Program-made: the position numbers and the translations under genes
Notes under the pieces: model-generated
The model's input: only the letters and a program-made list of their open reading frames with translations
Told to the model about the DNA's origin: nothing
Database searches by the model: none
Assembly (NCBI GenBank): GCA_964422555.1
Contig: CAYRBR010000002.1
Location: forward strand, 4,434 to 68,433
DNA: 64,000 nucleotides
Direction of reading: 5' to 3'
Origin: an uncultured Caldisericota bacterium
GTDB taxonomy: Bacteria; Caldisericota; Caldisericia; UBA6126
Shown here: positions 5,508-57,000 of the stretch, piece after piece
Numbering within the stretch: the stretch's first letter is position 1
Layout: every line of letters begins with the position of its first letter

Positions 5508-6545
5508 ATGAATTTTGGTCATTTTGGAAAAGATATTGCAATCGATCTTGGAACCGCTAACACACTTGTTTATATTGCTGGACAAGGGATAATGCTCAGA
5601 GAGCCTTCTATAGTTGCAGTACGTCGTGAAAATGGGGAAATTATTGCAATTGGTAACGAAGCAAAACGTATGGCGGGTCGTGTTCCAGAGGCAATACAGA
5701 TAATTCGTCCCTTGAAAGATGGGGTAATTGCAAATTTTGAGGTAACTCAAAAACTTATAGAATACTTAATACAAAAAGTAGGAGCAAGAAAAGGTTTTTT
5801 TGGGTTTATTAAGCCTCGATTAGTTATCGGAATCCCCTCTGGTATCACTGAAGTTGAAATGCGAGCAGTAGTTGAAGCAGGATATCAAGCAGGAGCTCGT
5901 TATGTTGGTTTAGTTCAAGAACCTATGGCAGCTTCTTTTGGAGCAAACCTTCCTGTAAGTGAACCTACAGGCAATATGATTGTTGACATTGGTGGAGGCA
6001 CATGCGAGGTAGCCGTTGTTTCATTAAATGGAATCGTCGCTAAAAATTCAATACGAATTGCCGGTGATGAAATGAATGAGGCAATTCTTCAATACCTTAA
6101 AAGACAGTACAACCTGCTTGTTGGAATTTATACTGCTGAAGAAATAAAAATTGAAATTGGAACTGCATATCCTAGTGATCAGGTAACAACAGCCGAAATT
6201 AAAGGAAGAGATCTCATTACGGGTCTTCCTCGAACTGTAACAATAACCTCAGAAGAGACGCGTATCGCATTAAATGACGTCTTGATTAGTATTATGGAAG
6301 CAGTTAAAGCAACTCTTGAAAATACACCTCCAGACCTTGGAGCTGATATTATTGACAGAGGTATATTTCTTGCAGGTGGAGGTTCCTTAATTCGTGGAAT
6401 GGCCAGATATATTTCAGAAGGTACTGGCATTCTAGTATCAAATGCTGAAAACCCTGTTCTTTGTGTAGCGCTAGGTGCAGGTAAAATAGTTGAAAACCTT
6501 GAAAAACTTATGCCACTTTTATTGAAGGTGAAGTATTATAAATAA
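5508..6545 (+). CDS. mreB: Rod-shape determining actin homolog MreB
   Basis: N-terminal DIAIDLGTANTLVY phosphate-1 motif, DIGGGTCEVAV, and a GGGSLIRG C-terminal motif. About 345 aa. Confidence 0.9.
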   Translation: MNFGHFGKDIAIDLGTANTLVYIAGQGIMLREPSIVAVRRENGEIIAIGNEAKRMAGRVPEAIQIIRPLKDGVIANFEVTQKLIEYLIQKVGARKGFFGFIKPRLVIGIPSGITEVEMRAVVEAGYQAGARYVGLVQEPMAASFGANLPVSEPTGNMIVDIGGGTCEVAVVSLNGIVAKNSIRIAGDEMNEAILQYLKRQYNLLVGIYTAEEIKIEIGTAYPSDQVTTAEIKGRDLITGLPRTVTITSEETRIALNDVLISIMEAVKATLENTPPDLGADIIDRGIFLAGGGSLIRGMARYISEGTGILVSNAENPVLCVALGAGKIVENLEKLMPLLLKVKYYK

Positions 6546-7367
6546 ATGTCTATAAAAAAAAGAGGCTTTTTGTGGCTTGTTATCTCCCTAGTCTTCTTTT
6601 TAGCTATTTCTTTTTATTGGAGCTTTAGTGATTCATCTTTTTCAATTGCATCCCAAGGATTTGTTAGAAATACTATAAGCCCCGTAGGAAAAATGTTCTC
6701 GTCATTTGGTTCTTCGATACATAATTTGCTTGCAAATCTACAATCCTACCCAAGTTTAGTCGAAAACAACCAAAGACTTTTGATTGAGAATGAATCATTA
6801 AAGAATGAAATTAAGATACGTGACCAAATTCAGTTTGACAATGAAAGATTTTCAATGTTACTAGGAATAGTGCAGGATAATCCTAACACATATATCCCTG
6901 CATCTATCATTTATCGAACCCCAGACTCTACTATGAATTTTATAATCAACAGGGGTTCAAATTCGAATGTTAAAGATGGATTGGCTGTGGTTTCCCCAGT
7001 TTACAAGAACAGTTCACTATCACATTTCCAACTCCTTGGTAAAACGATAGATGTTTCAAAACTCGACTCTCCAGTTTTATCACTCTATGATGAAAACTCA
7101 AATGTCAGTATCCGTAATCTCCGCAATAATGTAAATGGAACTGTATCCTTCAATTCAAAAAACAACACTCTGTATGTAAAATTCTACAAAAAAGAAGATT
7201 ATCAGCTCAATGATATTTTAGTTGTTAGTTCTTTTTCTTCATTGCCAAATGATTTACTGGTGGGATCTATTGTAGAAATTCAGCCGACTGAATCAATACA
7301 TTACCTAGCGATCGTTAAACCTGTCAAAGATTTTTCAAAGATTACAGAGGTTCTTGTTATTCAATGA
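6546..7367 (+). CDS. mreC: Rod-shape determining protein MreC
   Basis: Starts 1 nt after the mreB stop. N-terminal TM, coiled-coil segment, then beta-rich C-terminal domain. Position between mreB and mreD. Confidence 0.7.
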   Translation: MSIKKRGFLWLVISLVFFLAISFYWSFSDSSFSIASQGFVRNTISPVGKMFSSFGSSIHNLLANLQSYPSLVENNQRLLIENESLKNEIKIRDQIQFDNERFSMLLGIVQDNPNTYIPASIIYRTPDSTMNFIINRGSNSNVKDGLAVVSPVYKNSSLSHFQLLGKTIDVSKLDSPVLSLYDENSNVSIRNLRNNVNGTVSFNSKNNTLYVKFYKKEDYQLNDILVVSSFSSLPNDLLVGSIVEIQPTESIHYLAIVKPVKDFSKITEVLVIQ

Positions 7368-7840
7368 TCTACATAATTATTGTATTCCTTCAAGTTTTCA
7401 TTGTATGCCTTGATTTGTTTTTTTTTCCAAGTTTACTTCATTCCAGAACACCAATCGGCTTATCTTTGCTTTTTGCTATTTCCATGGTTTACCTGTTTCA
7501 AACCAAAGGTTTGTTTAGTATTCTCCCCGGATTACTCCTAAAACTCAGTTTTCTACCTACAACAATCGTAGTACCCACACTTATAGCATATTCACTATTT
7601 ATATTGCTATCTTTTCTTTTCAAAAACAATCAACAATCCCATGCAAACTCTTTGTTTATTCTTTTCTCTTATGTGGTGATTCTTAGTATTTTTATTTTTC
7701 AGTTTTTCTTTTCTTGCCCTAACCCTTTTTACACATTTATTCTAAATCTACTTTTATATACTTTTGTTATTCTTCCTTTGTTCTATATTTTTTCCAAAAA
7801 ATTGTTTTCGATCGCTCTCAGAAAAAAGCCTATTCTATGA
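7364..7840 (+). CDS. mreD: Rod-shape determining protein MreD (polytopic membrane)
   Basis: ATGA overlap with mreC. Very hydrophobic 158-aa protein. Operon position between mreC and mrdA. Confidence 0.6.
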   Translation: MIYIIIVFLQVFIVCLDLFFFPSLLHSRTPIGLSLLFAISMVYLFQTKGLFSILPGLLLKLSFLPTTIVVPTLIAYSLFILLSFLFKNNQQSHANSLFILFSYVVILSIFIFQFFFSCPNPFYTFILNLLLYTFVILPLFYIFSKKLFSIALRKKPIL

Positions 7841-9627
7841 ATCATATCCCTTTAGTAAAAAAGAATATCGACATTCATCCTGTTAAGATCGTTCTTTTTA
7901 TTTTAATCATTTCAGCATGTTCCGTATTCCTTATAACAAAACTCCTTATCTTGCAAGGATTCGAACAAGAGAAATATGCTCATTTAGCAACTAATAATTA
8001 CAACCGGTACAGTCTTCAAGAAGCTCCAAGGGGTACCATATATGATCGTAATGGTATTGTTTTAGCAGAGGATGTTCCCACTTTTCATCTTTATGCAGTT
8101 CCCAGCGAAATACCACAACCAAAATACTCCTCAAAATTAATACATGACTTAATAGGTATAAACCAAGAAACAGTCATTCAAAAAATTACTGAAAATTATT
8201 CTTTTGCCGAGATCTTGCTAAAAGAAAACCTATCCTACGAAGAAAGAATTCGTCTGGAAGAAAACGAATACAAGTTAAAGGGTTTCTTCATAAAAGAAGG
8301 GTATAAGAGGTTTTACCCTAAAAATTCTTGTCTGTGCCATGTTATAGGATACACGGGAGTTATTTCACAAGATGATCTGGCTAGAAAGAAATATTCCGCA
8401 TATCAGCCAAATGAGAGGATAGGCATTTCAGGTATAGAAAGATACTACGAAATGTTACTTCATGGCACACCTGGACTTAAGAAGCAAACAATTGACGTAT
8501 ACGGTCATGTCGTGGATGAAATAACTGAAAAAGAAGTTATAAAAGGGAAAGATATCTACCTAACCATTGATTCCAGACTTCAGGAAAAAGCAGAAGAAAT
8601 CATACAGGATCATCGGGGATGCCTTGTTCTTATGAATTGCAATAATGGTGAAATCATAACTTGCGCATCAAATCCTACTTTTGATCCAAATTACTTCTCT
8701 GGACCCAGACCTATTGAAACTTGGAACTTATGGGTGGAGAATAGAGCTTTTTTCAACATTGCAACCATGGGACAATATCCACCTGGTTCAACATTCAAGC
8801 CCATTGTCGCTTTATTTGGATTAGTAAGTGGTTATCTTACAGATTCCGAATATATTACGTGTACTGGTTCTTTGAAAATCCCCGGACAAGAAGATAAATA
8901 CAGATGCTGGGTATATCCTTCTTCACATGGACCCTTACAATTAAAGAGAGCAATACAGGTATCTTGTGATGTTTATTTTTACCTTGCTGCCGAAAGATAT
9001 CCTATTGAATCTTTCATATCATTTCTAAAAGATTTTGGAGGCATATCAAAAGCTACGGGAATTGATTTACCGTCTGAAGAAAGTGGCTTTCTTGGTAGTC
9101 CGGAATGGAAAGAAAAATTTAAGGGACAATCCTGGTTTAAGGGTGATTCTATGAATTTAGGAATTGGGCAAGGTTTCTTATCTGTTACACCTATTCAGAT
9201 GACAAAATTATATGCTAAAATTGGGAACAAAGGGAAACATATTCAACCTCACCTCCTACTTGTTGAAAACTCTGAATCAAATTCAACTGATTCGTTAGAT
9301 AATTATGCAGATCACAATATTTCACATTACGACTACGATACTATTTTAGAAGGTATGCACATGACTACTCTGTATCCTGGTACTGCATCCGGACTATATA
9401 CTAACTCAGTAGAGATCGCTGCAAAAACCGGCACTGCATTGGTTCAGGGACAAGGTAGAGATATCCAGCATCTTTGGCTTGGTTCAATATTCCCCTATGA
9501 AGATCCTCAGTATAGTTGTTTCCTTCTGTTCGAAAATTCGCAATATCAATTAGCAAGTAATTTAACTCCATTTTTAAAAAATTTTATTGTATACTTTTAT
9601 CAGCTTGATGCATCGGAGGTGAATTAA
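7837..9627 (+). CDS. mrdA: Penicillin-binding protein 2 (elongasome transpeptidase)
   Basis: ATGA overlap with mreD. N-terminal TM. Motifs S-x-x-K (GSTFKP), S-x-D (SCDVYFY, as in PBP2) and KTG (KTGTA). Confidence 0.85.
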   Translation: MNHIPLVKKNIDIHPVKIVLFILIISACSVFLITKLLILQGFEQEKYAHLATNNYNRYSLQEAPRGTIYDRNGIVLAEDVPTFHLYAVPSEIPQPKYSSKLIHDLIGINQETVIQKITENYSFAEILLKENLSYEERIRLEENEYKLKGFFIKEGYKRFYPKNSCLCHVIGYTGVISQDDLARKKYSAYQPNERIGISGIERYYEMLLHGTPGLKKQTIDVYGHVVDEITEKEVIKGKDIYLTIDSRLQEKAEEIIQDHRGCLVLMNCNNGEIITCASNPTFDPNYFSGPRPIETWNLWVENRAFFNIATMGQYPPGSTFKPIVALFGLVSGYLTDSEYITCTGSLKIPGQEDKYRCWVYPSSHGPLQLKRAIQVSCDVYFYLAAERYPIESFISFLKDFGGISKATGIDLPSEESGFLGSPEWKEKFKGQSWFKGDSMNLGIGQGFLSVTPIQMTKLYAKIGNKGKHIQPHLLLVENSESNSTDSLDNYADHNISHYDYDTILEGMHMTTLYPGTASGLYTNSVEIAAKTGTALVQGQGRDIQHLWLGSIFPYEDPQYSCFLLFENSQYQLASNLTPFLKNFIVYFYQLDASEVN

Positions 9628-9628
9628 A

Positions 9629-10327
9629 TTGCCCTCAAAAAGAACACCCGATACTGTAGTCAATTTTAAAGGAGTCTCCAACGGGATTCTTATGTCATTA
9701 GAGCTTGACGATTATGAATTTGATAAAGTTGTCAGGAAAGCAGTTTCAATATATAAAAAGAAGCGAAGCTTTTTTGGACAAAATGTTGATTTGTTCGCCA
9801 CTGGTTTTACCAGAGACCTTACTGTTGACGAAGTTGGCATGACTAGGAAAATGTTTGACTATTTGGCTCACAAAGAAGTTCTACCCTACAAAGATACTCT
9901 GCCACAAAATCCCCAATCCTCTTCGAATGAATCTATTATTCAGACTGACAAACTTTCACCCTTTGAAGATATTGAAACGAATGAAAACAGTAATGAATTT
10001 TTAGTAATTGGTAAGGATGTTCGAGCTGGCATAGTAGTCCATTCCCCCGGGAATATAATTGTCTTTGGAAATATTAATTTTGGCGCAAAGGTGATTGCAG
10101 GTAAATCTCTTTATGTTTATGGTTCAATAAAAGGGGATGTAACGTTTGCATCTAGTAAAACTTGCAATCAGGCAATACTAACCTGTTTAAAAATGCAAGC
10201 AATAAGTATCCATACGAAAAAGGAGTTAATTAAAAATCCCATTCAAACCTTAGAGACTGAATCCTTTCCCCTGTATATTTTATACAATAATGGTAACACA
10301 AGCATTGTTACAATGAATGATGGATAA
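9629..10327 (+). CDS. minC: Septum site-determining protein MinC
   Basis: TTG start 6 nt after GGAGGTG. C-terminal beta-helix region GIVVHSPGNIIVFGNINFGAKVIAGKSLYVYGSIKGDV typical of the MinC C-domain. Followed by minD. Confidence 0.7.
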   Translation: MPSKRTPDTVVNFKGVSNGILMSLELDDYEFDKVVRKAVSIYKKKRSFFGQNVDLFATGFTRDLTVDEVGMTRKMFDYLAHKEVLPYKDTLPQNPQSSSNESIIQTDKLSPFEDIETNENSNEFLVIGKDVRAGIVVHSPGNIIVFGNINFGAKVIAGKSLYVYGSIKGDVTFASSKTCNQAILTCLKMQAISIHTKKELIKNPIQTLETESFPLYILYNNGNTSIVTMNDG

Positions 10328-11117
10328 CAAAGGTCAGATCATTGTTTTTACATCCGGTAAAGGTGGGGTTGGTAAATCAACTTTAGTTGCAAACATTGGT
10401 ACTGCAATCGCTCTTCAAAAAAAGAGAGTTGTTGTGATTGATATGGATATTGGCCTAAGAAACCTTGATATGATTCTTGGACTAGAACGTAAAGTTAGAA
10501 CAAACATCGTTGATGTAACCAAAGGCTTCAGTTCTGTTGACGATGCACTCATTTTTGACAAACGGACAAACAACTACCTATCTTTGATAGCAGCTTCCCA
10601 AAGTGACATGAAAAAGGATATTAATTTATTTAAATTCCATGGTGTTCTTACCTATCTTGAAAAGCGTTTTGATTTTATTTTAATTGATTCTCCCGCAGGA
10701 ATTGAAGAAGGTTTCAGCAAGTCTATTTACTATGCAAAAAAAGCGTTTGTTGTTGTTAACCCTGAGATTTCTTCTATTCGTGACGCGGATAGGGTTTTAG
10801 CATTGCTTGAGAGTCATCGAATCAAAAAGGATATTTTTCTGATCATTAATCGATATAATCATAAACTCAGTAAACGAAGCTACTATATTTCTTCTGACGA
10901 TATCGTTGCTCTTCTCCATGTCCCCTGTGTTGGCATTGTATCAGAAGATGAACGCATCCTCAGGCAGAATAATTCAGGCAGCCCATTTGTATACCAAAGC
11001 AACCTTCCTATTGCTACAGAAATAAAAAAAATATCCCGGATGATTATTGGGAAATCCCCGCAGAAATCTAAATTGAATGTTTCTAAATCTTTGTGGAATA
11101 AAATGAAGAACAGTTAA
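10317..11117 (+). CDS. minD: Septum site-determining ATPase MinD
   Basis: Deviant Walker A SGKGGVGKST. ParA/MinD-fold 266-aa protein with a C-terminal amphipathic tail. Confidence 0.9.
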   Translation: MMDNKGQIIVFTSGKGGVGKSTLVANIGTAIALQKKRVVVIDMDIGLRNLDMILGLERKVRTNIVDVTKGFSSVDDALIFDKRTNNYLSLIAASQSDMKKDINLFKFHGVLTYLEKRFDFILIDSPAGIEEGFSKSIYYAKKAFVVVNPEISSIRDADRVLALLESHRIKKDIFLIINRYNHKLSKRSYYISSDDIVALLHVPCVGIVSEDERILRQNNSGSPFVYQSNLPIATEIKKISRMIIGKSPQKSKLNVSKSLWNKMKNS

Positions 11118-11129
11118 TAGGAGTTTAAC

Positions 11130-11363
11130 ATGAGTTCAAAAGCCTCTAATCGACTAAAAATAATTCTTAATGAAGATAGAAAAATTCTATCTAAACAAAG
11201 TGAAAAAGATCTTAGAAAAAAGATTGCCACTGTAATGAGTGAATATTTTGCAATAGACAAACGAAAAATACGTATCAATGTGATAAAAACCAATCATCAG
11301 GCCGAATACAAATTAACGGCTGACATGCCCATTAAAAAAAGTGAGTTAGAAAAAGACCAATGA
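11130..11363 (+). CDS. minE: Cell division topological specificity factor MinE
   Basis: 77-aa protein following minD. Preceded by AGGAG. Confidence 0.75.
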   Translation: MSSKASNRLKIILNEDRKILSKQSEKDLRKKIATVMSEYFAIDKRKIRINVIKTNHQAEYKLTADMPIKKSELEKDQ

Positions 11364-12532
11364 GGATCATTCATGTTGGAAGCCTCTTTATTGGTCTTCA
11401 GAACCTTGGGAAGTCAACTGATAATAGCTACATGTTTTCGCAAGTTCAAGACTATTTTGACTACCTGTCATTTATTGCTGAATATGTAGATAAGAACTCT
11501 ATCGATGTGGTTTTATTCTCTGGTAATTTATTCTTTTCTTCACACCCAAGCCCTTTCTTACAATGGAAATTAGGGAATGTGTTGGAAAAAATGCACAAAA
11601 GTGATATAAAAATTTTTATACTCCAGAACCAATATGATCAATCAGACTCATACTCTTCCAGTAGTGAAATATGTAGTTATTCTATGCTAGATAAATACGC
11701 TAGATTTGTTAACAAACCTAGCGTTCATCCAATCAAAAGAAAAAAGGATTCTATTCAAATTGCCTTTTTACCCTTTAAAAGAAGTCCCTTCTCAACAGAC
11801 TCTAAAAACCTTGGTAGTAACAAAACGAAAGAGTTTGAAAAGGAGCTTAAAATACTCTCTTCACAAATTGACTCGGATATACCATCCTTTCTTATGACAC
11901 AAGCTTTAATCGACAATGTTAAACAATACTACCTGTTTAATTCTCTGCCAGAAATCTCTTCATCAATATCTGATTCTCTCCCGTTTCACTATATCTCTCT
12001 TTCGAATTTTCCATTTTCAAAGATAATTCCTGTTCATCGTCGAAACAACCAAACTGTGTTTTATTCTTATCCTGGTACATTGGGTGAAATCGAATTTGAA
12101 GATTCTTTAATTGATCGCGGTTTTATTTTGTATGACACAAAAAACAACAATTCTCCTGTTTTCGTACCTAATGCAGCAAAACGTCACACTGCTCTTATTC
12201 GGGTTCATGGACAAAACGAAGAAGAGGTATGGGAAAAACTAAATGAAGAATTTCTTTTAAACGATTACAGAGACTATATTACCACAATTGTCGTTCAAGC
12301 TCCCTTAAGAATAAATCCAAACGTAATTCGTGATAAGTATTCTGAGCATTGTTACTACATACAAAGAATCGTATCGCAAAAAGAGATTGTTAAATGTGAA
12401 GAAACGTATAACCAAATTGGCTTTTCAGATTTTTTAAGATCCTATTTAACCTTACAAGATATTCAAGACAAGGACTTTTTAGAAGATGTTTATAAACAAG
12501 GCAACCAGTATTACGAGAAGACAAAACTGTGA
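11360..12532 (+). CDS. sbcD: SbcD/Mre11-like protein with degenerate phosphoesterase motifs (predicted non-catalytic)
   Basis: ATGA overlap with the minE stop. The N-terminus MRIIHVGSLFIG parallels SbcD MR-I-HTSD-HLG but lacks the D and H metal ligands. GD becomes GN in motif II (VVLFSGNLFF). GNHD becomes QNQYD. Confidence 0.55.
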   Translation: MRIIHVGSLFIGLQNLGKSTDNSYMFSQVQDYFDYLSFIAEYVDKNSIDVVLFSGNLFFSSHPSPFLQWKLGNVLEKMHKSDIKIFILQNQYDQSDSYSSSSEICSYSMLDKYARFVNKPSVHPIKRKKDSIQIAFLPFKRSPFSTDSKNLGSNKTKEFEKELKILSSQIDSDIPSFLMTQALIDNVKQYYLFNSLPEISSSISDSLPFHYISLSNFPFSKIIPVHRRNNQTVFYSYPGTLGEIEFEDSLIDRGFILYDTKNNNSPVFVPNAAKRHTALIRVHGQNEEEVWEKLNEEFLLNDYRDYITTIVVQAPLRINPNVIRDKYSEHCYYIQRIVSQKEIVKCEETYNQIGFSDFLRSYLTLQDIQDKDFLEDVYKQGNQYYEKTKL

Positions 12533-15510
12533 TGATTACACCAAATTTCATTGAAATCAATAATTTCCTCTCGTATGTAGGTACACATAAATTATCCTTC
12601 CAAGAAAATTCTTACTATCTAGTCTCTGGTAAAAATGGAGCTGGCAAAAGTGCTTTAGCTGATACAATGATTTTTTCTTTGTTTGGTATTCTTCGTTCAG
12701 AATATTCTCCCTTCAATAATCAAATTCTTTCTTTTGGAGCTGAATCAGGCTATATCCAGTTTGATTTCTTTTTAAATGACACTTTGTGGAGAATTCGACG
12801 TGATTTTTCTACTGATTCAACAAATAATCACATTCAGTTTAAAAAACGCCAAAATACATACTGGAAGAACTATACTCTTTCTGAAGATTCCTTGACTCAA
12901 CAGCAAATCTTAGATACTTTAAAAATAACTCCTCAACAGTTTTTCATGACTTTTTTTAAGACAAACAGTTATCCCTCTTTCTATGAGTTTCTTTCACTTA
13001 ATAATGTTGATAAGTATACTGCTGTATCGCGATTTCTTAATGTACCCTCTTTTGATTTGATTCAAAAATTTGTAGAGAAAGATCTCCAAGAATACGCAAT
13101 AAGGAAAGAATATCTTTCTACTTTTATAAACCAGAATAAATCGAAAATAAAAGAAAAAAAGCAACTTGAAAAAATCCTTCATGAGAGTAAAGATAAGTTG
13201 GCTAAAACGAAAGAACAGATACTACATTTAAAGCAAGATATCGATCAACAAGATTTACTCTGTAAAGAAATTGAAAATGGCCTTCAAAATAAAAAAATAT
13301 TGATGGAACGAATTCAGTATCTACGAAACAACCAGAATGAAAAGCGAACTGAAAGACAACTTCTTTCTGAAAAATTAAATGAATTGCAAAATGCAATTAA
13401 AATCCAGCATGAAATTGAAAATGGGTATAAACAGTTATCTGACTTGATCGTTTTAAACAAAAAATACAATGAAAATTTTGAACAGAGAGAAAGAATTCAA
13501 CATCAAATTGATGAAATTCAAACTATTCTAGATGATCAAGAAATCGCATTAAAGAAAAAGGCAAATGATCTAAAACAAGCTGAAGATGAATACTCTGAAA
13601 AGAAAAAATATCTTCCTGATTTAAATTTAAAAATGCAAGCAATCCAATCCAAGTTGAAAGAAATGGAAAAAGTTCGCTATCAAGTTCAAAAACTTGAAAA
13701 AGAAAAAGAATCCATTCAAAAGGAAATTGATGTCCTTAATGAAAAAATTGGGATGTTGAAAAAAGAAAGGATCATCATACGAGAAAAGAAAGAAAAAATC
13801 TATAAAGAAGTAGTCTCTTTCGAACAAATTATTCAAAAAGATCAAAGTACGAAAAAGAAATTACAAATCCTAAAAGAGAATAAAGAGAAGGTTAAATTAT
13901 TACAAGACCAAATTGATTTAGAAGAAAAAAAGAAGAACATTTTATCTCAACAAAATGAACGTTTCGAGTCCATGATAGAAACGCTAAACGAGAAGATCAG
14001 TATTTTCCACATAACGGATGAATTTGAAAATCGATGTCCAGCTTGCGGTACTCCACTTACAAAAGAAAAAGAATCTGAAATACTCTTGAACTACAAGCGT
14101 GATTTAGAGATGAAAAAATCTACATTAAATAGAAACCTGAATACGCTCCAAAAAATGGAAAACAAGATAGTCTCACTGAACAGTGATAAAAATGTTCTTT
14201 CTTCGGATTTTCATCTTGAGGAAGATTTACAACAACAATATTTGCAAATACAAGAATGTAAAGCCTCTATAAGAACTAAAACCGAGAATCACTACCGAAC
14301 AAAACTTCAGGAATCGAAAATTGAAGAAGAGCTTAACAAAACTACTTACTCGATAAACAATCTAAAAAGTCGTTTGAAAACAGCTGATCAGCAATTCATA
14401 AATTTAACACTTGTCCTTTCTAACCAAACTGTATTGGAAAACAATTTAGGAGATCTTCACAAACAAATTTCAGAAGCTTTAGAGGTAGACCAAAAATTAC
14501 CCAGTATTCTAAAACAATTAATTGAAACAAAGCGGAAAATTGAAACAAAAAACTATTCTCAAGACAATTGGAAAAAACTAAATGAACTTAAAAAAAGAAT
14601 CCTCTCTATTCCTTACAGTGTAGCTGAACACAATCAAATTAAGAATAAAATTAATCAACTTAAATATTTCGAAACCGAAAAAAGAGTAATGGATGAGAAA
14701 TTAATTGAAAAAGACAGTGTTTTGAACCAATTATCCTCTGTCGATAAAAAACTTGGTTCTCTTCAATCTGAGATTGATAAAAATATTGATTCAATAAAAG
14801 GTATACCCTACCAACAAAAGGATCTCTATGCTGAACAAGATAAGAAAAAATGTTTAGTTTCAAATAGAGAGCAATCTGAACTCGAAGAAAAAGATTTGGA
14901 AATAGAGATTTCGAAGTTTGAACAAAATATGGAAGACATTCACCGACTACAAATAAAATATGGTGAAGCACTTGAAGAATTTAATACATACCTTAAAAAA
15001 GAAAAAAGTGTTACAATATGCAGAGAACTCTTAAGAGAAACCGCTATAGGAGTTTTTATCGTTTCCCGTATTATACCCTCTCTTGAATTTTATGTTAACG
15101 GTATTTTATCTTCTCTCACAGACAACGATATACAGGCATCCGTTTCTTTGACGAAAAGTAAAAATAATAATCAACAACTTACAGTAAAGATTATTGAGAG
15201 CGGTCATTCAATCTCATATGAATACCTAAGTACCGCAGAAAAGTTTAAAGTTAACATTGCATTTCGGCTTGCCTTTTCTAAACTACTCTCAGATCATCCT
15301 GAAAACAATAGGGTGTTTTTATGTATTGATGACGATTTTGGTTCATTAGATTTAAATAGTAAAAATCAAATAATTCTCTCTTTGTTAAAGTTAAAGAAAT
15401 CCATCAATACACTTTTATTGATAACACATTCAAACGTGTTCCAGAATTGCTTTGACTACAGAATTCGTATTCAGAAAACCAGAAATACTTCATCTTTTTC
15501 ATATTATTAA
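12532..15510 (+). CDS. sbcC: SbcC/Rad50-like SMC-family ATPase with central zinc hook
   Basis: TGATG overlap with the sbcD stop. Walker A GKNGAGKS and long coiled-coil arms. CPACG hook near the midpoint (14044-14058). C-terminal signature-like LSTAEK, Walker-B-like FLCIDDD, D-loop SLD, H-loop LLITHS. Confidence 0.75.
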   Translation: MITPNFIEINNFLSYVGTHKLSFQENSYYLVSGKNGAGKSALADTMIFSLFGILRSEYSPFNNQILSFGAESGYIQFDFFLNDTLWRIRRDFSTDSTNNHIQFKKRQNTYWKNYTLSEDSLTQQQILDTLKITPQQFFMTFFKTNSYPSFYEFLSLNNVDKYTAVSRFLNVPSFDLIQKFVEKDLQEYAIRKEYLSTFINQNKSKIKEKKQLEKILHESKDKLAKTKEQILHLKQDIDQQDLLCKEIENGLQNKKILMERIQYLRNNQNEKRTERQLLSEKLNELQNAIKIQHEIENGYKQLSDLIVLNKKYNENFEQRERIQHQIDEIQTILDDQEIALKKKANDLKQAEDEYSEKKKYLPDLNLKMQAIQSKLKEMEKVRYQVQKLEKEKESIQKEIDVLNEKIGMLKKERIIIREKKEKIYKEVVSFEQIIQKDQSTKKKLQILKENKEKVKLLQDQIDLEEKKKNILSQQNERFESMIETLNEKISIFHITDEFENRCPACGTPLTKEKESEILLNYKRDLEMKKSTLNRNLNTLQKMENKIVSLNSDKNVLSSDFHLEEDLQQQYLQIQECKASIRTKTENHYRTKLQESKIEEELNKTTYSINNLKSRLKTADQQFINLTLVLSNQTVLENNLGDLHKQISEALEVDQKLPSILKQLIETKRKIETKNYSQDNWKKLNELKKRILSIPYSVAEHNQIKNKINQLKYFETEKRVMDEKLIEKDSVLNQLSSVDKKLGSLQSEIDKNIDSIKGIPYQQKDLYAEQDKKKCLVSNREQSELEEKDLEIEISKFEQNMEDIHRLQIKYGEALEEFNTYLKKEKSVTICRELLRETAIGVFIVSRIIPSLEFYVNGILSSLTDNDIQASVSLTKSKNNNQQLTVKIIESGHSISYEYLSTAEKFKVNIAFRLAFSKLLSDHPENNRVFLCIDDDFGSLDLNSKNQIILSLLKLKKSINTLLLITHSNVFQNCFDYRIRIQKTRNTSSFSYY

Positions 15511-15579
15511 ATTGACAAATTTAGTTTGTTCTTTTTAATGATCAACGTATTTTTATGGTTTTGAAAGCGGGGATCTATC

Positions 15580-15777
15580 TTGAAACAAATAGAAAAGATT
15601 ATCATCGATGAGAAACGTTGTAAACATTGTAGCATTTGTGTTCATATCTGCCCAAAGGAAGTCTTGGAAGAAGATTCAACTGGCACAATATTTGTCGAAA
15701 ATTTAGCAGCTTGTATCGGCTGCATGTCTTGCCAGGATCATTGTCCAGATTTAGCAATTGAGGTGATTACATCATGA
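15580..15777 (+). CDS. 2-oxoacid:ferredoxin oxidoreductase delta subunit (2x[4Fe-4S] ferredoxin)
   Basis: 65 aa with CKHCSICVHICP and CIGCMSCQDHCP. ATGA-coupled to the alpha subunit. Confidence 0.7.
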   Translation: MKQIEKIIIDEKRCKHCSICVHICPKEVLEEDSTGTIFVENLAACIGCMSCQDHCPDLAIEVITS

Positions 15778-16898
15778 GTTACCGAAGAGAAATCTTACAA
15801 GGCGCACAAGCGTGTGTAAGGGGAGCAATAAAATCTGGTATAGGTTTTTTTGCTGGATATCCTATAACACCCTCTACTGAGGTTGCAGAACTTTTTTCAA
15901 CTGAACTAGCGAAAGAGCAAAAGATTTTCATCCAAATGGAAGATGAAATTGCTAGCATAACTGCTGTCATTGGCGCATCTTTGGCTGGAAAAAAAGCAAT
16001 GACTGCAACATCTGGTCCTGGTTTTTCTTTAATGCAAGAAGGATTGGGATATGCCTGCATGGCAGAAGTACCCTTAGTTCTTATAAATGTGCAACGGGGA
16101 GGACCCTCCACCGGTTTACCTACTCGGGTTGCACAAGGTGATGTCATGCAATCCAAATGGGGAACCCACGGTGATCACCCTATGATTGTGCTCTGTCCCT
16201 CTTCTGTACAAGAACTCTACGAGATGACAATTGAAGCATTTAATCTTTCAGAGCAATATCGTAACCCTGTTATTATATTGACCACCGAAACTATCGCTCA
16301 TATGCGAGAAAAAGTCGAAATTGATTTATCGGTAGAACCAAAGATCTACAATCGACTCACTCCAAGACTAAAAATTGGTGAAAAATATCTTCCCTATGGT
16401 AAATTTGCTGACGACGTACCCATTATGGGAAATATCGGCGACGGTCTTGGCACAAGTATTACCGGTTTGGTTCATATGGAAAATGGCTTTCAAAGCGCAA
16501 ATTACGAAGTAGCAGATCGATTGATTCGTAGAATTAATCGAAAGATTGAAAAACATACTAAAGATATCTTTTCCATGGAAATCATTAACCCAAACGCCAA
16601 AAAAATGTTCATTTCATATGGAGTTGCAAGCCGAACCATTAACTCTTTGATTCATTCAGATCATGATGATATTGGTTTAATTCGTGTTAAAACTCTATTT
16701 CCAATTGACCCCGAACAAATTCGAAAAGCAACCGAGCATGCATCTCAAATCTTTGTTACTGAATTAAATCTTGGTCAGTATTACCAGGAGATCCAGAAAA
16801 TTCTTCCTAATCGTAATGTTCATTTAATTGAGAAAATTGGCGGAGAACTAATCCCTCCAAAAGAAATGTTAAGAAGAATTGAGGAATACAATGATTAA
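15774..16898 (+). CDS. 2-oxoacid:ferredoxin oxidoreductase alpha subunit (KorA/VorA/PorA family)
   Basis: 374 aa with typical alpha-subunit N-domain GYPITPSTEV and GPGFSLMQEGLGYA. Sits in a delta-alpha-beta-gamma cluster. Confidence 0.85.
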   Translation: MSYRREILQGAQACVRGAIKSGIGFFAGYPITPSTEVAELFSTELAKEQKIFIQMEDEIASITAVIGASLAGKKAMTATSGPGFSLMQEGLGYACMAEVPLVLINVQRGGPSTGLPTRVAQGDVMQSKWGTHGDHPMIVLCPSSVQELYEMTIEAFNLSEQYRNPVIILTTETIAHMREKVEIDLSVEPKIYNRLTPRLKIGEKYLPYGKFADDVPIMGNIGDGLGTSITGLVHMENGFQSANYEVADRLIRRINRKIEKHTKDIFSMEIINPNAKKMFISYGVASRTINSLIHSDHDDIGLIRVKTLFPIDPEQIRKATEHASQIFVTELNLGQYYQEIQKILPNRNVHLIEKIGGELIPPKEMLRRIEEYND

Positions 16899-17706
16899 AG
16901 GTGAAAAGTTTTATCATCCAGATAGATTGCCCACTATATGGTGCCCTGGTTGTGGTAATGGTATAGTATTACACGGTGCTATGGAAGTTTTAGATGATTT
17001 AAATTGCACAAAAAAAGATGTAATTTGTGTATCTGGTATTGGGTGTTCCTCGAGATCTGCAACATACACCCAATTTGATGAAGTTCATACACTGCACGGT
17101 CGTGCAATTCCCTTTGCTACTGCAATAAAACTTTGCCAGCCAGATAAGAAAGTCATTGTATTCACTGGTGATGGTGATTCAGCAGCAATAGGTGGGAACC
17201 ATCTAATCCATGCTGCTAGAAGAAACATTGATATTACTGTTATAGTATTTAACAATAGTATATATGGTATGACTGGCGGACAAGTATCACCGTTAACAGA
17301 ACCATTCAAGAAAGGAACTACTGCTCGTTTTGGTAACTACGAAAACCAATTTGATTTAGTTCAACTATTATTAGGAGCTGGGGGAACCTATATTGCAAGA
17401 ACAGGAACCTACTACTATAAGATGATGAAAAAGTATATGAAAAAAGCCTTTTTAAGAAAAGGTTTTTCCTTTATAGAAGTTATATCTCAATGCCCTGTCT
17501 ACTACGGTCGACTTAACAAGATGGCAAAACCCTATGATATGCTAACCAACCAAAAGGATATTCTTGTTTCAAAAGATAAGTATGAAACATTATCCTCTGA
17601 CGATAAATTTGGGAAATTACCCATTGGTGAATTTATTGAAGATAATTCTCAACCATCCTATTTAGAAAAAAGAGAGCAACTTTTAAAGAAGGTGAGAGAA
17701 ACATGA
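16891..17706 (+). CDS. 2-oxoacid:ferredoxin oxidoreductase beta subunit (TPP-binding)
   Basis: WCPGCGNG Cys motif and TPP-binding GDGDSAAIGGNH. ATG at 16891 follows GAGGA; the ORF track start at 16879 overlaps the alpha stop. Confidence 0.85.
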   Translation: MIKGEKFYHPDRLPTIWCPGCGNGIVLHGAMEVLDDLNCTKKDVICVSGIGCSSRSATYTQFDEVHTLHGRAIPFATAIKLCQPDKKVIVFTGDGDSAAIGGNHLIHAARRNIDITVIVFNNSIYGMTGGQVSPLTEPFKKGTTARFGNYENQFDLVQLLLGAGGTYIARTGTYYYKMMKKYMKKAFLRKGFSFIEVISQCPVYYGRLNKMAKPYDMLTNQKDILVSKDKYETLSSDDKFGKLPIGEFIEDNSQPSYLEKREQLLKKVRET

Positions 17707-18233
17707 GAGTAGAATTACGCTTTTCTGGTTCAGGTGGTCAAGGTTTAATTACCGCTACTCGTATTATTGCTAGAGCTGCATTAAGAGAAGGTAAAAATGC
17801 AATGCAATCTCAATCTTATGGAGCTGAGGCAAGAGGTGGTGCTACTAAAAGTGAAGTAATCATAAGCACTCGAGAAATATACTATCCTGAAATCGAAGTA
17901 CCTGATGTATTACTTTTAATGACAAAAGAAGCCTACCAAAAATATGGCACTACCATCAAAGAAGGTGGTATTCGTATTTTAGATAGTTTTTTCATACCTG
18001 ATTATGAAAGAATCTCTAAAGCTCGAACATACACAGAACCTTTTACTTCAATTTGTGAGGAAGAATTTAAAACACAGATCATGGCCAACATGATAATAAC
18101 AGGATATTTGATTGGTATCACTAAAGTTGTCTCTCTTGACTCATTTAATCAGGCCATTGGTGACTTTTTCTCAGATGATAAACTTACAAACAATATAAAA
18201 GCAGCAAAATTTGGCTACAATCTAGCAATCTAA
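17703..18233 (+). CDS. 2-oxoacid:ferredoxin oxidoreductase gamma subunit
   Basis: ATGA overlap with the beta stop. 176-aa gamma-family sequence GSGGQGLITATRI. Confidence 0.8.
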   Translation: MRVELRFSGSGGQGLITATRIIARAALREGKNAMQSQSYGAEARGGATKSEVIISTREIYYPEIEVPDVLLLMTKEAYQKYGTTIKEGGIRILDSFFIPDYERISKARTYTEPFTSICEEEFKTQIMANMIITGYLIGITKVVSLDSFNQAIGDFFSDDKLTNNIKAAKFGYNLAI

Positions 18234-18247
18234 TCATTCATTAAGAA

Positions 18248-19477
18248 CTATTCCAGGTCGTGTTCCCCAAGAGAACACGACCTTTTTTTATTTAAAAATA
18301 CGGCAACTAATTTACCAAAGAATCGAATCAAAACATTGTCTAGTTCTTTATGAGCTTTTTTCAACTCTTTTCGTATTTTAATACTTTGAGGACATAATTT
18401 TTCACATCTTCCGCAATCAGTGCATAAATCTACTCCAGATTTTCTTCCCCCCATGAGACCTAGTAACTTTCCTAAATAACTCAACTGTGCTGCTTTGCCA
18501 CCAAAAAAAGATTTATTATTGTAGTCACTAAAGATTCCTGGTATGTCCACGCCATATGGACAAGGCATACAATAACCACAACCCGTACATGGCACTTTCA
18601 TTAATCGATTGAAAATTACTTTTACGTCATTAATAATGTTAATTTCCTCTTCGGACATACTACCAGGTTTTGTAGTGTCAGCAACGTGAATATTCTCTTC
18701 TATATGAACTTGTACATTCATACCGCTTAACACAATTCCTACTTCTTTTTGATTCCAAATCCAGCGTAATGCCCAATGAGAAGGTGACCTGTTTTCCTTA
18801 TATTCATTGAATTTATGGATTGCCTCCATTGGTATTTTAGATGCTAAATTCCCTCCACGAAGGGGTTCCATTACTACTACACCGATATTTTTCTTATAAG
18901 CGTTGTATAAGCCAGCCACTCCAGCCTGATTATATTCATCTAAATAATTGTATTGGATTTGACAAAAATCCCAGGGAAAATCATTCAATATTTTTTGAAA
19001 TTCATCAGGCCTTCCATGAAATGAAAAACCGATAAAACGGATCTTTTTGTTGCGTTTCATTTCATTAACAAAAGAGATAATCCCGAATTCTTTTAATCTC
19101 TCCCATGTTTTAAAACTATCAAGCATATGCATTAAGTAGTAATCTATATAATCGGTTCCTAGTCTTTTTAGCTGAGTAAAAAAGAATTTTTTTATCTGTT
19201 CTGGTCTTTGTAACAAAAACGTAGGTAGCTTATCGGCTATATAAACTTTCTTCCGTATTTGATTTCTTGCAATAAACTTACCTAAAATTATCTCGCTTTT
19301 CCCTGCATGGTATGGATAAGCGGTATCAAAATAATTAACACCATTCTCGTAAGCATAAAGCAATTGGTCATAGGTTTTTTTCTCATCAATGCGAGTATTC
19401 TTTGTTGGAAATCTCATACATCCGTACCCTAAAACTGATACAAAATCCCCGCCTTTGACTAATTGTTTATATCTCAT
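18248..19477 (-). CDS. Aldo/keto reductase fused to a C-terminal 2x[4Fe-4S] ferredoxin-like domain
   Basis: AKR N-domain (GYGCMRF, FDTAYPYHAGKSE). C-terminal CTGCGYCMPCP and CTDCGRCEKLCP. Confidence 0.8.
   Translation of the reverse strand: MRYKQLVKGGDFVSVLGYGCMRFPTKNTRIDEKKTYDQLLYAYENGVNYFDTAYPYHAGKSEIILGKFIARNQIRKKVYIADKLPTFLLQRPEQIKKFFFTQLKRLGTDYIDYYLMHMLDSFKTWERLKEFGIISFVNEMKRNKKIRFIGFSFHGRPDEFQKILNDFPWDFCQIQYNYLDEYNQAGVAGLYNAYKKNIGVVVMEPLRGGNLASKIPMEAIHKFNEYKENRSPSHWALRWIWNQKEVGIVLSGMNVQVHIEENIHVADTTKPGSMSEEEINIINDVKVIFNRLMKVPCTGCGYCMPCPYGVDIPGIFSDYNNKSFFGGKAAQLSYLGKLLGLMGGRKSGVDLCTDCGRCEKLCPQSIKIRKELKKAHKELDNVLIRFFGKLVAVFLNKKRSCSLGEHDLE
18256..18289. terminator. Rho-independent terminator between convergent genes (10-bp GC-rich stem GGTCGTGTTC/GAACACGACC, 7-nt loop, T7 run)
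   Basis: Perfect inverted repeat 18256-18282 followed by TTTTTTT. Lies 23 nt after the gamma-subunit stop and overlaps the last codons of the minus-strand AKR gene. Confidence 0.55.
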
Positions 19478-54094: not shown

Positions 54095-57000
54095 TTAAAC
54101 AACAGATCCCTCAGCCATTTTTCTGTAGGTTTCATATCGTTCTTTAGCATCTTCTTCAGCTTTATCAAATAAATCTTGTGCAATTTCAGGAAAAGATTTT
54201 TCTAGAGAAGTATATCGTACTTCACTCTTAATAAATTCCTGGAAAGAAGCGGTAGGTTCTTTCGAATCAAGAATAAATGGATTCTTTCCTTCTTCCTTTA
54301 ACGTTGGATTAAATCGATAAAGATGCCAGTAACCAGCTTCAACAGCACGTTTTTCTTGTTCCTGGGACTTACCCATTCCAAGCTTCAACCCGTGGTTGAT
54401 ACATGGCGAATACGCAATAATTAAAGATGGACCTGGATAAGCTTCTGCTTCAGACATCGCTTTCATAAGTTGATTCTTGTTTGCCCCCATAGCAACTTGG
54501 GCTACATATACATAGCCATAGGACATCAACATTCTTCCCAAATCTTTTTTCTTAGTTCTTTTACCAGCCGCAGCAAATTTAGCTACAGCAGCTTCAGGAG
54601 TAGACTTGGACGACTGTCCACCTGTATTAGAGTATACTTCAGTATCAAACACCAGTATGTTTATATCTCTACCAGATGCCAAAACATGGTCTAGGCCACC
54701 ATAACCAATATCATAGGACCATCCGTCTCCACCCCAAGACCATACAGAACGTTTTACAAGATAGTCTTTGCGTTGAGAAATCTGATCCATAATCTCTCCA
54801 ACTCTTCCTTGGAAAGATGAACCTAACAACTTAAGAATTTCCATCGAATAAAGCTTCGATTCTTTTGCTATCTCTTTATTCTGAATCCAATTCTCAAATA
54901 CACTCTTCATTTCAGGATCAATGTCAAGAGTTATTAACTCTTCCATTAATACTTTTAAACGGTTTCGTATTTGATCTACTGCAAGTAACATACCGAAACC
55001 ATACTCAGCATTATCTTCAAACAAAGAATTAGCCCAAGCAGGTCCTTTTCCATTTGCATTTTTACAGAATGGGATAGAAGGAGCACTAGCTCCCCAAATT
55101 GAAGAACAACCTGTTGCGTTTGCAATTAACATTCTATCGCCAAACAGCTGGGTTGCCAACTTAGCATAGGGTGTTTCACCACAACCAGCACAAGCTCCAG
55201 AAAACTCAAACAACGGTTTTACAAATTGAGAACCTTTGACAGTATGAATATTTACTTCATCAAGTTTTTCAGAAACAGATTCTACAGCCCAATTAAAGTT
55301 CTCTTGTTCGCTTAATTGTGTGTCAAGTGGTTTCATTGTAAGAGCTTTATCTTTCGCAGGACAGATATCTGCACAGTTTCCACAGCCGGTACAGTCAAGA
55401 GGGTCAATTTGGATAACAAACTGATATTTATCCAAGCCTTTTCCTTTACCAGGAATAGTTCTAAAACCATCAGGCGATTGACTTGATTCTTTTTCATCTA
55501 ACAAGAAAGGTCTGATTGCAGCATGTGGACAAACAAATGCACACTGATTACATTGGATACAGTTTTCTGGAATCCAATGTGGAACATTAATTGCTATTCC
55601 TCTTTTTTCATATGCACTTGTGCCTGATGGAAATTCACCGTTTTCTCTAGTCGTGAAAGCACTTACAGGTAGGTTATCTCCTTTTTGGAGATTCATTGGT
55701 TCAAGTATGTTTTTAATGAAAGCAGGAACATCGTCATTGTTAGATGATTTTTCATCGTCAACAGATAGTGAAGACCATTCAGAAGGGATTTCAATCTGTT
55801 TTATATCTTCTATTCCTTTGTCAACAGCAGCATAATTCATATTTACAATCTTCTCTCCTTTTTTCCCATAAGTATCTTTAATGGCTTTTTTAAGGAGTTC
55901 GATCGCCTTTTCTAATGGTAACACACCAGATAATTTGAAGAATACAGCCTGCATTATCATGTTGATTCTGTTGCCTAATCCAATTTCTTCGGCAATTTTC
56001 GTTGCATTAATTGTGTAAAATTTAATGTTGTTCTTGGCTAAATGACATTTCACTGAAGAAGGCAACATATCACTCAGTTCAGATTCATCCCATTTACAAT
56101 TTAATACAAATATACCTTCTTTTTTTAATCCTTCTAAAACATCATAGTGACCAATATAGGATTGATTGTGACATGCAATATAATCTGCTTCGTGAATAAG
56201 ATAAGTTGATTTAATAGGTTTATCACCAAAACGTAAATGAGATACCGTTACTCCACCTGATTTTTTTGAATCATATGCAAAGTAACCCTGAGCATACATG
56301 TCAGTATTATCACCTATAATTTTAATTGCATTCTTATTAGCACCAACTGTTCCATCAGAACCCAATCCCCAGAATTTACAACGGATTGTACCTTTTGGAG
56401 CAGTTACAATACGTTCAGTTTCGACCAAGGAGGTATTTGTTACATCATCGTCAATACCAATCGTAAATTGGTTCTTCGGAGTATCTAGCTTAAGATTATC
56501 AAATACAGCCTTAATTTGGGAGGGAGTTGTATCTTTAGAACCCAACCCATATCTACCACCAACAATAATTGGTGCATGTTCATTGCGATAGAATACGTTT
56601 CTTATATCCAGATATAGTGGTTCCCCATTTGATCCAGCTTCCTTTGTCCGGTCAAGAACAGCAATTTTCTTAACTGTTTTAGGAAGGGCAGACAAAAAAT
56701 GTTTTGCACTAAAAGGTCTATAAAGACGAACTTTGATAAGTCCCACTTTTTCCCCTTTAGATAGCAAATAATCAACTGTTTCTTCCATTGTTTCAGTCGC
56801 TGATCCCATTGCTATAATAACTCTTTCAGCATCAGGATCACCGTAATAGTCAAACAAATGGTACGAACGTCCTGTAATCTTTGATACTTTTTCCATATTC
56901 TTTTCCACAATTTCGGGTAAAGCATCATAGAATAAATTAGCAGATTCTTTAGCTTGGAAATATATATCAGGATTTTGTGCAGTACCCATAATTTTCGGAT

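Follow-up and report, generated by a model that had tools for sequence, protein, structure and literature searches.

What remains of an SbcCD (Mre11-Rad50) complex once the catalytic residues of both of its subunits have been replaced is the question raised by a gene pair of an uncultured Caldisericota bacterium (GenBank assembly GCA_964422555.1, contig CAYRBR010000002.1). The pair lies in a 64,000-nucleotide stretch of this contig, positions 4,434 to 68,433 of the forward strand, which is referred to here as the window and to which all nucleotide positions below refer. It encodes an SbcD/Mre11-like protein of 390 amino acids (11360-12532, + strand) and an SbcC/Rad50-like coiled-coil ATPase of 992 amino acids with degenerate hydrolysis motifs (12532-15510, + strand). 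The loss of the catalytic residues from two proteins that have nevertheless been kept intact argues that the pair has probably ceased to be a nuclease and instead serves as a DNA tether or scaffold that binds ATP. As judged from sequence, a nuclease-dead, hydrolysis-impaired complex that still binds ATP would be the most plausible description of this system, and a probability of roughly 0.6 is attached to it. The motif states, the orthology of the pair, its modelled fold and the purifying selection acting on it are established directly.

Degenerate Hydrolysis Motifs in the SbcC-Like ATPase

The sbcC-like open reading frame (ORF), read by direct translation, begins with an ATG at 12532, with a GTG in frame at 12529. 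Its N-terminal head contains an intact Walker A motif (GKNGAGKS, residues 33-40, 12628-12651), followed by a Q-loop region (FKTNSY, 12955-12972) in which the family Gln has been replaced. HMMER alignment of the N-terminal 175 amino acids with Methanocaldococcus jannaschii Rad50 sets Asn145 (12964-12966) on the position of this Gln. The C-terminal 175 amino acids were aligned pairwise in the same manner with Pyrococcus furiosus Rad50 (1F2U, 3QKR), which sets LSTAE on LSGGE, IDD on LDE, and ITH on VSH. The ATP-binding cassette (ABC) signature, [FY/L]SGGE in the family, is thus degenerate in the window protein (LSTAE, residues 899-903, 15226-15240), as is the Walker B motif (FLCIDDD, residues 929-935, 15316-15336), where D933 corresponds to the Walker B Asp and the next two residues, D934 and D935, take the places of the catalytic Glu and of the family Gly, respectively. 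The D-loop (FGSLD, 15337-15351) and the H-loop (ITHS, 15421-15432, with an invariant His966) are retained. No second candidate for either degenerate motif, in the form of SGG or LSGG[EQ] for the signature or of hhhDE or hhhhDE for Walker B, occurs elsewhere in the last 212 amino acids; an earlier note on this DNA, made from its letters alone, had named such a canonical copy as one observation that would overturn its interpretation.

That note had described Walker A, the long coiled coils and a central CPACG hook as intact, the signature as LSTAE, and the Walker B Glu as replaced by Asp. The translation and the model agree with the first of these statements, and the P. furiosus Rad50 alignment with the other two. 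Its coordinates were less exact, being 1-10 nucleotides off: the hook had been placed at 14044-14058 and was found at 14035-14049, the signature at around 15236-15250 rather than 15226-15240, and Walker B at 15317-15337 rather than 15316-15336. The loss of the Q-loop Gln is an addition to its list of altered motifs.

The extent of the divergence is reflected in comparisons with curated family profiles. The protein matches Pfam AAA_23 at 4e-10 and falls below threshold for Rad50_zn_hook (17.8 versus 24.3) and far below the TIGR00618 cut-off (65 bits versus 478.5), and Pfam SbcC_Walker_B gives no match on it. The overall architecture is nonetheless that of Rad50 in an AlphaFold2 model built from a 26-sequence alignment (predicted local distance difference test, pLDDT, of 80.9), in which an N-terminal head is followed by an outgoing helix (residues 172-493), a hook loop (494-510), a returning helix (511-835) and a C-terminal head. 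The zinc-hook motif CPACG (residues 502-506, 14035-14049) lies at the apex of the coiled coil. Foldseek searches with the full-length model returned generic SMC/Rad50 chains, and were used for architecture only, because the long arm renders a global root-mean-square deviation meaningless.

Two blocks of the arm, recognized by their invariant columns, are unusually conserved. One lies in the outgoing helix (QHEIENGYKQL...NENFEQRERI, 13405-13497) and the other in the returning helix (IKNKINQLKYFETEKR, 14638-14685). Both lie ∼130 amino acids from the head and are common to the degenerate and the canonical SbcC proteins of Caldisericia. Their similar distance from the head suggests that the two blocks pair with each other, and they may form a joint or a partner-binding site.

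Loss of the Nuclease Site in the SbcD-Like Partner

The SbcD-like protein is identified as a pseudo-nuclease by alignment and by its AlphaFold2 fold. It gives no match in Pfam, Metallophos included, whereas SbcD of the sister clade described below does match Metallophos, and its TIGR00619 score (2e-12, 47 bits) is below the cut-off of 77.65. Alignment with canonical SbcD proteins encoded at the syntenic position in related genomes, a reference set that was itself aligned to the SbcD structures of Staphylococcus aureus, Thermotoga maritima and Escherichia coli, reveals that all eight metal-binding and catalytic residues are gone, which agrees with the description of this partner as degenerate in the earlier note. 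These residues are the equivalents of D8, H10, D48, N83, H84, H184, H222, and H224 in E. coli SbcD numbering. The remnant of motif I reads HVGSLFIG (11372-11395; canonical HTADLHLG), with loss of the Asp and the His; motif II reads SGNLFF (11519-11536; canonical SGDIYH), with Asp replaced by Asn; and motif III reads LQNQYD (11621-11638; canonical LIGNHD), with Asn replaced by Gln and the catalytic His by Tyr. Motif IV (canonical [AS]HLT) has been removed by a deletion of five amino acids at 11888-11908, and in motif V, LSNFP (11999-12013; canonical MGHIH), both His are lost. Since no metal site is left, the SbcD-like protein cannot cut DNA.

The fold of the protein appears to have outlived its active site. 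The AlphaFold2 model, built from 44 sequences (pLDDT 81.9; predicted template modelling score, pTM, 0.77), is that of Mre11, and the top 50 Foldseek matches in the PDB are all Mre11 or SbcD, the best being 3QG5 (3e-17) and 3AUZ (template modelling score, TM, 0.78), together with E. coli 6S6V/7YZO. The model also contains two C-terminal helices (residues 355-365 and 371-388) at the predicted position of the helix pair through which Mre11 binds Rad50, and its best structural matches include chains of full-length Mre11-Rad50 complexes.

Origin of the Pair From a Canonical SbcDC Locus

The closest relatives of the window are metagenome-assembled genomes (MAGs) labelled Caldisericia or Caldisericota. 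Orthologues of the pair are encoded in an identical gene string in the seven species-representative genomes JAGLCW01, JAXGOZ01, JAQVSG01, CAYRWA01, CAZBOU01, CAZOYI01 and DAIMET01, at 43-48% identity, and together with the window these constitute a clade of eight species in which the degeneration is shared. None of the eight keeps the Q-loop Gln, for which the window has Asn145 and the orthologues have Ser, and the Q-loop region carries an insertion of two amino acids in the clade relative to its sisters. In the seven orthologues the signature takes the form S[QS]GE (LSQGE or LSSGE), compared with LSTAE in the window, such that the first Gly has been replaced clade-wide, and Walker B reads ID[ENQ]D in the orthologues versus IDDD in the window. 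The dead SbcD motifs are common to the whole clade, and the D-loop and H-loop have been kept throughout it. A Walker A motif of the form G-x-NGAGKS is common to every SbcC of the clade and its sisters and is also kept across the outgroup, and CPxCG, a zinc hook predicted from its sequence, is present in every SbcC of the clade and its sisters. At the position of Asp935 (15334-15336), Asp occurs in 8/8 clade members (D-x-D-FG) versus Gly in 148/148 outgroup SbcC proteins (DEGFG), a state that is fixed and derived.

A fully canonical sbcD-sbcC pair occupies the corresponding place of this string in at least six other lineages of Caldisericia (L004/L017, L016/L019, L018, L020-23, and L024). The locus shared by the degenerate clade and these canonical sisters has the order mreBCD-PBP2-minCDE-sbcD-sbcC-Fd-POR, in which Fd denotes ferredoxin and POR the 2-oxoacid:ferredoxin oxidoreductase genes. 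The sister SbcD proteins have the motifs ADLH, GD, GNHD, [AS]HLT, and GHIH, and the sister SbcC proteins MQG, FSGGE, and IDEGFG. Because these sister lineages have a canonical sbcDC at the identical locus, the genes in the window are positional orthologues and not a new family. The degenerate clade is monophyletic in a neighbour-joining tree of flanking proteins, and in the SbcC tree it is set apart by a very long stem. The window pair therefore represents the ancestral sbcDC of Caldisericia in a form altered within one subclade, and is neither a paralogue nor a foreign system. A tblastn search of the window with all retrieved SbcC relatives found no second SbcC-like gene outside 11300-15600.

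The canonical state from which this clade has departed is nearly without exception among its relatives. A profile search for SbcC relatives over 1.84 billion proteins (cluster representatives) returned the clade itself first (two representatives), then one sister representative, and then canonical SbcC. Among the nearest 148 SbcC cluster representatives outside the clade, [FY]SGGE, [IVM]DEGFG, and the Q-loop Gln are each present in 148/148. Measured against these alignments, the motif deviation of the window SbcC is far outside the normal variation of the family.

Selection and the Shift of Constraint

The genes have continued to evolve under purifying selection, and the sbcD-like and sbcC-like ORFs are intact in all eight species. 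Ratios of nonsynonymous to synonymous substitution rates (dN/dS), estimated by the Nei-Gojobori method from the few close pairs with unsaturated dS (0.5-0.9), are 0.09-0.11 for the SbcC-like head in the degenerate clade versus 0.024 in the canonical pair L016/L019, 0.04 versus 0.021 for the coiled coil, and 0.085-0.097 versus 0.039 for SbcD-like and SbcD, respectively. The neighbouring PBP2, MinD and oxidoreductase subunits have values of 0.02-0.08. When divergence is expressed relative to the flanking genes, as p-distances taken at different depths in the two groups, the head has diverged 2.40x in the degenerate clade versus 0.67x in the canonical lineages, the coiled coil 1.76x versus 1.12x, and the SbcD-like or SbcD protein 2.32x versus 1.11x. 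Evolution of the ATPase head is accordingly ∼3.6-fold faster in the degenerate clade than in the canonical lineages, and constraint on it about four-fold relaxed.

The distribution of conservation along the protein has been altered as well. Within the degenerate clade, mean pairwise identity is lowest in the heads (49-54%) and highest in the hook and coil (56-77%), an order that is reversed in the canonical sister set, where the heads share 70-77% and the coils 48-64%. To the extent that sequence comparison can measure constraint, the coiled coil and hook have taken over from the ATPase head as its main target. Taken together, the low dN/dS, the intact ORFs and the shifted identity indicate that the genes are functional and that the strongest constraint acts on the arm and hook.

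The codon at the position of the catalytic Glu is GAA (Glu) in the basal lineage, GAC (Asp) in the window, CAA or CAG (Gln) in one subgroup, and AAT (Asn) in another. As these codons differ, there must have been several independent replacements, which followed the changes shared on the stem of the clade. Variation among Glu, Asp, Gln and Asn at this position is expected once hydrolysis is no longer selected.

A Proposed Model of a Catalytically Dead Tether

In its ATP-bound closed state, Mre11-Rad50 binds DNA ends, tethers them and takes part in signalling without hydrolysis or nuclease activity, and it is hydrolysis that opens the complex for the nuclease step (PMC3642328). The likely activity of the window pair would correspond to the closed-state half of this cycle, in which DNA is held or tethered by the heads, coiled coils and hook, with no open-state nuclease step to follow. 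The SbcC-like protein has probably retained ATP binding through Walker A, the Walker B Asp, the D-loop, the H-loop, and the Ser and Glu of the signature, and has probably also retained dimerization through the zinc hook. What it has given up is the Q-loop Gln, which positions Mg2+ and water, the catalytic Glu, which acts as the base, and the signature glycine(s), whereas the SbcD-like protein has given up its whole nuclease site. The loss of these three elements from the ATPase suggests that ATP would act as a long-lived switch that keeps the heads engaged, rather than as fuel. With an Mre11 fold and a putative counterpart of the Rad50-binding helices, both seen in its model, the SbcD-like protein would most likely form a dimeric bridge beneath the two heads of such a complex.

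The earlier note had envisaged a slow-hydrolysing or ATP-binding-only scaffold, a proposal that now gains support from the presence of Asp, Asn, Gln or Glu at the Glu position across the clade, from the loss of the signature Gly and the Q-loop Gln, and from the dead SbcD, as well as from the purifying selection that maintains Walker A, the D-loop, the H-loop, the hook and the coiled coil. A literature search for natural, catalytically dead SbcCD complexes found none.

Comparison With Known Systems

The pair resembles bacterial SbcCD (E. coli 6S6V/7YZO; T. maritima Mre11-Rad50 3QG5/3THO) in its gene order, with sbcD preceding sbcC, in its ∼400-amino-acid subunit, whose model combines an Mre11 fold and capping domain with a pair of helices at the C-terminus, and in its ∼1000-amino-acid partner, which combines an ABC head with an antiparallel coiled coil, a CxxC hook, Walker A, the D-loop and the H-loop. 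It differs from bacterial SbcCD in lacking the eight nuclease residues, the Q-loop Gln, the signature Gly and the catalytic Glu, in scoring far under the curated family cut-offs, and in having a coiled coil that is better conserved than the head. The Gln or Asn (and Asp) that occur naturally in place of the catalytic Glu mimic the mutation engineered into hydrolysis-deficient Rad50. Unlike that mutant, the state described here, as known from sequence, is natural and fixed in a clade, and it is accompanied by loss of the Q-loop Gln and of the nuclease.

Degenerate ATP sites are familiar from other ABC proteins. In site 1 of CFTR and in the TAP1/TAP2 transporter, the Walker B Glu is replaced by Asp or Ser and the signature reads LSHGH or LAAGQ, and these sites bind ATP stably with little hydrolysis. 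The substitutions are of the same kind as those of the window SbcC-like protein, but CFTR and TAP each keep one competent site, whereas a Rad50-type homodimer would have two degenerate ones. A parallel of another sort is offered by the crenactin operon of Thermoproteales, which includes the gene for Arcadin-4 (Rkd4), a coiled-coil ATPase resembling Rad50. This gene stands beside that of an actin-family cytoskeletal protein, much as sbcC-like follows mreB and minCDE. Arcadin-4 belongs to a different domain of life, however, and its connection with the window protein is limited to a faint P-loop match at the N-terminus (NF053563, E 0.004); no relatedness beyond the superfamily is evident.

A precedent for both halves of the pair is found in Lamassu defence systems. 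LmuB is derived from SbcC, has a CxxC hook and a Walker B of the form hhhhDD or hhhhD[QSTE], and has been interpreted as a slow-hydrolysing sensor of DNA ends (PMC12663957), while LmuC is derived from SbcD and lacks its nuclease (PMC12663957). The window pair likewise combines a Walker B of this kind with an SbcD partner that has no nuclease site. It differs from Lamassu in that no LmuA effector is present, in its full-length arm (shortened in Lamassu) and full SbcD fold, and in its housekeeping, vertically inherited locus.

Genomic Context

The segment is chromosomal, with a G+C content of ∼34%. The sbcC-like gene is the final member of a packed string that runs from ApbE through mreB, mreC, mreD, PBP2, minC, minD, minE, and SbcD-like to SbcC-like. 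The seven genes from mreB to minE (5508-11363, + strand) are co-oriented and tightly packed, PBP2 occupying 7837-9627, minC 9629-10327, minD 10317-11117, and minE 11130-11363. The stop codon of minE overlaps the start of sbcD-like in ATGA, and sbcD-like overlaps sbcC-like in GTGATG. On the 3' side of sbcC-like there follow a ferredoxin gene and the genes of a three-subunit 2-oxoacid:ferredoxin oxidoreductase. Within 3.5-18.5 kb there is one strong terminator-like site (18255-18283), which lies past the oxidoreductase genes, and the promoter and terminator scan was otherwise uninformative.

In every Caldisericia genome seen (L001-L004, L009-L024), the string ApbE-Hpre_diP_synt_I-mreB-mreC-mreD-PBP2-minC-minD-minE-sbcD-sbcC is present, with both the minE/sbcD and the sbcD/sbcC overlaps, and this min-linked string accompanies canonical and degenerate SbcCD alike. 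In other phyla, the SbcD genes most closely related to these (L025, L026) adjoin neither min genes nor sbcC. In Caldisericaceae (L005-L008), a canonical SbcC (P0020, P0023) is encoded at another locus, in the order tRNA methyltransferase, holB, PSP1, LDcluster4, sbcC, and without an adjoining sbcD; the min-linked arrangement is therefore not universal in Caldisericota. In one of the clade genomes (GCA_040767255.1; L003/L012, 7155-8605), minC and minD are each called as two fragments, which could reflect frameshifts or assembly errors, and sbcD-like and sbcC-like are intact.

The window encodes a single-chain pyruvate:ferredoxin oxidoreductase of 1179 amino acids (54095-57634, - strand) in addition to the four-gene ferredoxin/POR set that lies directly 3' of sbcC-like (15580-18233, + strand). 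A multi-PAS/GAF histidine kinase of 1650 amino acids is encoded at 57722-62674 (- strand).

Alternative Explanations

Several observations weigh against an ATP-binding tether with impaired hydrolysis. One lineage (L001) still has Glu at the catalytic position, and D934, or the neighbouring clade-invariant D935, might sustain slow hydrolysis. Because only Asp, Glu, Asn and Gln occur at position 934, the position is not free of constraint, and because the relaxed head is still at a dN/dS of ∼0.1, some sequence-dependent function of the head must persist. These points would be accommodated by a non-canonical but working ATPase, in which the carboxylate of D934 or D935 replaces the catalytic Glu and slow ATP cycling serves as a motor or switch, only the nuclease having been lost. 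The fixation of Gly to Asp at 935 in 8/8 clade sequences, the retention of Walker A, the D-loop and the H-loop, and the report of a functional, slowly hydrolysing Lamassu LmuB with hhhhDD are consistent with such an enzyme. Replacement of the Walker B catalytic Glu by Gln is, however, the classical change that leaves these ATPases hydrolysis-dead, and the Gln or Asn found at 934 in six of the eight species resembles it; the Q-loop Gln and the signature Gly are gone as well, and the head evolves at ∼3.6x the canonical rate. A working ATPase is therefore considered unlikely, though it is the strongest of the competitors. The accelerated evolution of the head and of the SbcD-like protein, together with the very low profile scores, could instead be taken as signs of relics on their way to becoming pseudogenes. 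This reading was rejected, and hardly any weight is left to it, given intact ORFs of 992 and 390 codons in eight species at 34% G+C, dN/dS values of 0.04-0.11, an invariant Walker A, hook and set of coil blocks, and conserved overlapping start and stop codons.

Two further explanations concern what a dead SbcCD might be kept for. The pair could have been exapted for cell division or chromosome handling as a structural accessory of the Mre/Min machinery, for instance as a DNA tether or a nucleoid marker for division-site placement; Mre11-Rad50 would then have been stripped of both enzymatic activities and kept as an ATP-gated structural coiled-coil tether that works with the translationally coupled MreB/Min system. 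The overlap of sbcD with the minE stop codon, the invariable place of sbcDC after mreBCD-PBP2-minCDE in Caldisericia, the lack of a strong terminator before 18255, the conserved coiled-coil blocks, which suggest a binding partner, and the absence of min linkage from the closest SbcD relatives in other phyla all point in this direction. The linkage is older than the degeneration, however, and holds equally for fully canonical SbcCD, so that it need not reflect a shared function, and a literature search linking SbcCD with MinCDE found nothing. Both the exaptation and the coupled-tether version of it are accordingly held to be improbable. Far less credible still is a derivation toward defence, in which an SbcC-derived SMC protein with a degenerate Walker B would sense foreign DNA ends in the manner of Lamassu. 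The DD, DQ and DN forms of Walker B do resemble LmuB, and PADLOC returns a weak LmuB match (47 bits), but the canonical sister SbcC matches LmuB better (79 bits), and the PADLOC match is therefore one of general family similarity. The locus contains no LmuA-type effector, its flanks (minE, ferredoxin/POR) are housekeeping genes, the coiled coil is full-length (in a protein of ∼990 amino acids), the SbcD-like partner is full-length rather than a C-terminal domain alone, and the whole is vertically inherited and syntenic. Membership in Lamassu or another defence system was rejected on account of the missing effector and of a PADLOC match weaker than that of canonical SbcC.

Implications

The general view of Mre11-Rad50/SbcCD is of a nuclease-ATPase that is universally conserved. 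Its catalytic motifs show essentially no variation, as in 148/148 of the nearest relatives examined here. The Caldisericia genes constitute, as far as their sequences can tell, a naturally catalytically degenerate but selected pair of SbcCD orthologues, and thus a variant of a known system. Genes of this kind carry the annotation "SMC family ATPase" or "exonuclease SbcC/SbcD"; when the metabolism or repair of Caldisericia MAGs is inventoried, they should not be entered as a working SbcCD nuclease. The occurrence of matched canonical and degenerate orthologue pairs at one locus makes them well suited to biochemical comparison, and the pair provides a parallel, on the chromosome and in vertical descent, to the proposed route of Lamassu from SbcCD to a slow-hydrolysing DNA sensor. 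If a tether linked to the Mre/Min system were indeed at work, it would be a bacterial counterpart of the Rad50-like accessories of cytoskeleton and chromosome organization, and tethering alone would be selectable. With both subunits degenerate and yet held at a dN/dS of 0.04-0.11, the clade amounts to a natural separation-of-function experiment, which suggests that selection can favour the ATP-bound holding or tethering of DNA for its own sake, or else some other scaffold function of the coiled coil and hook.

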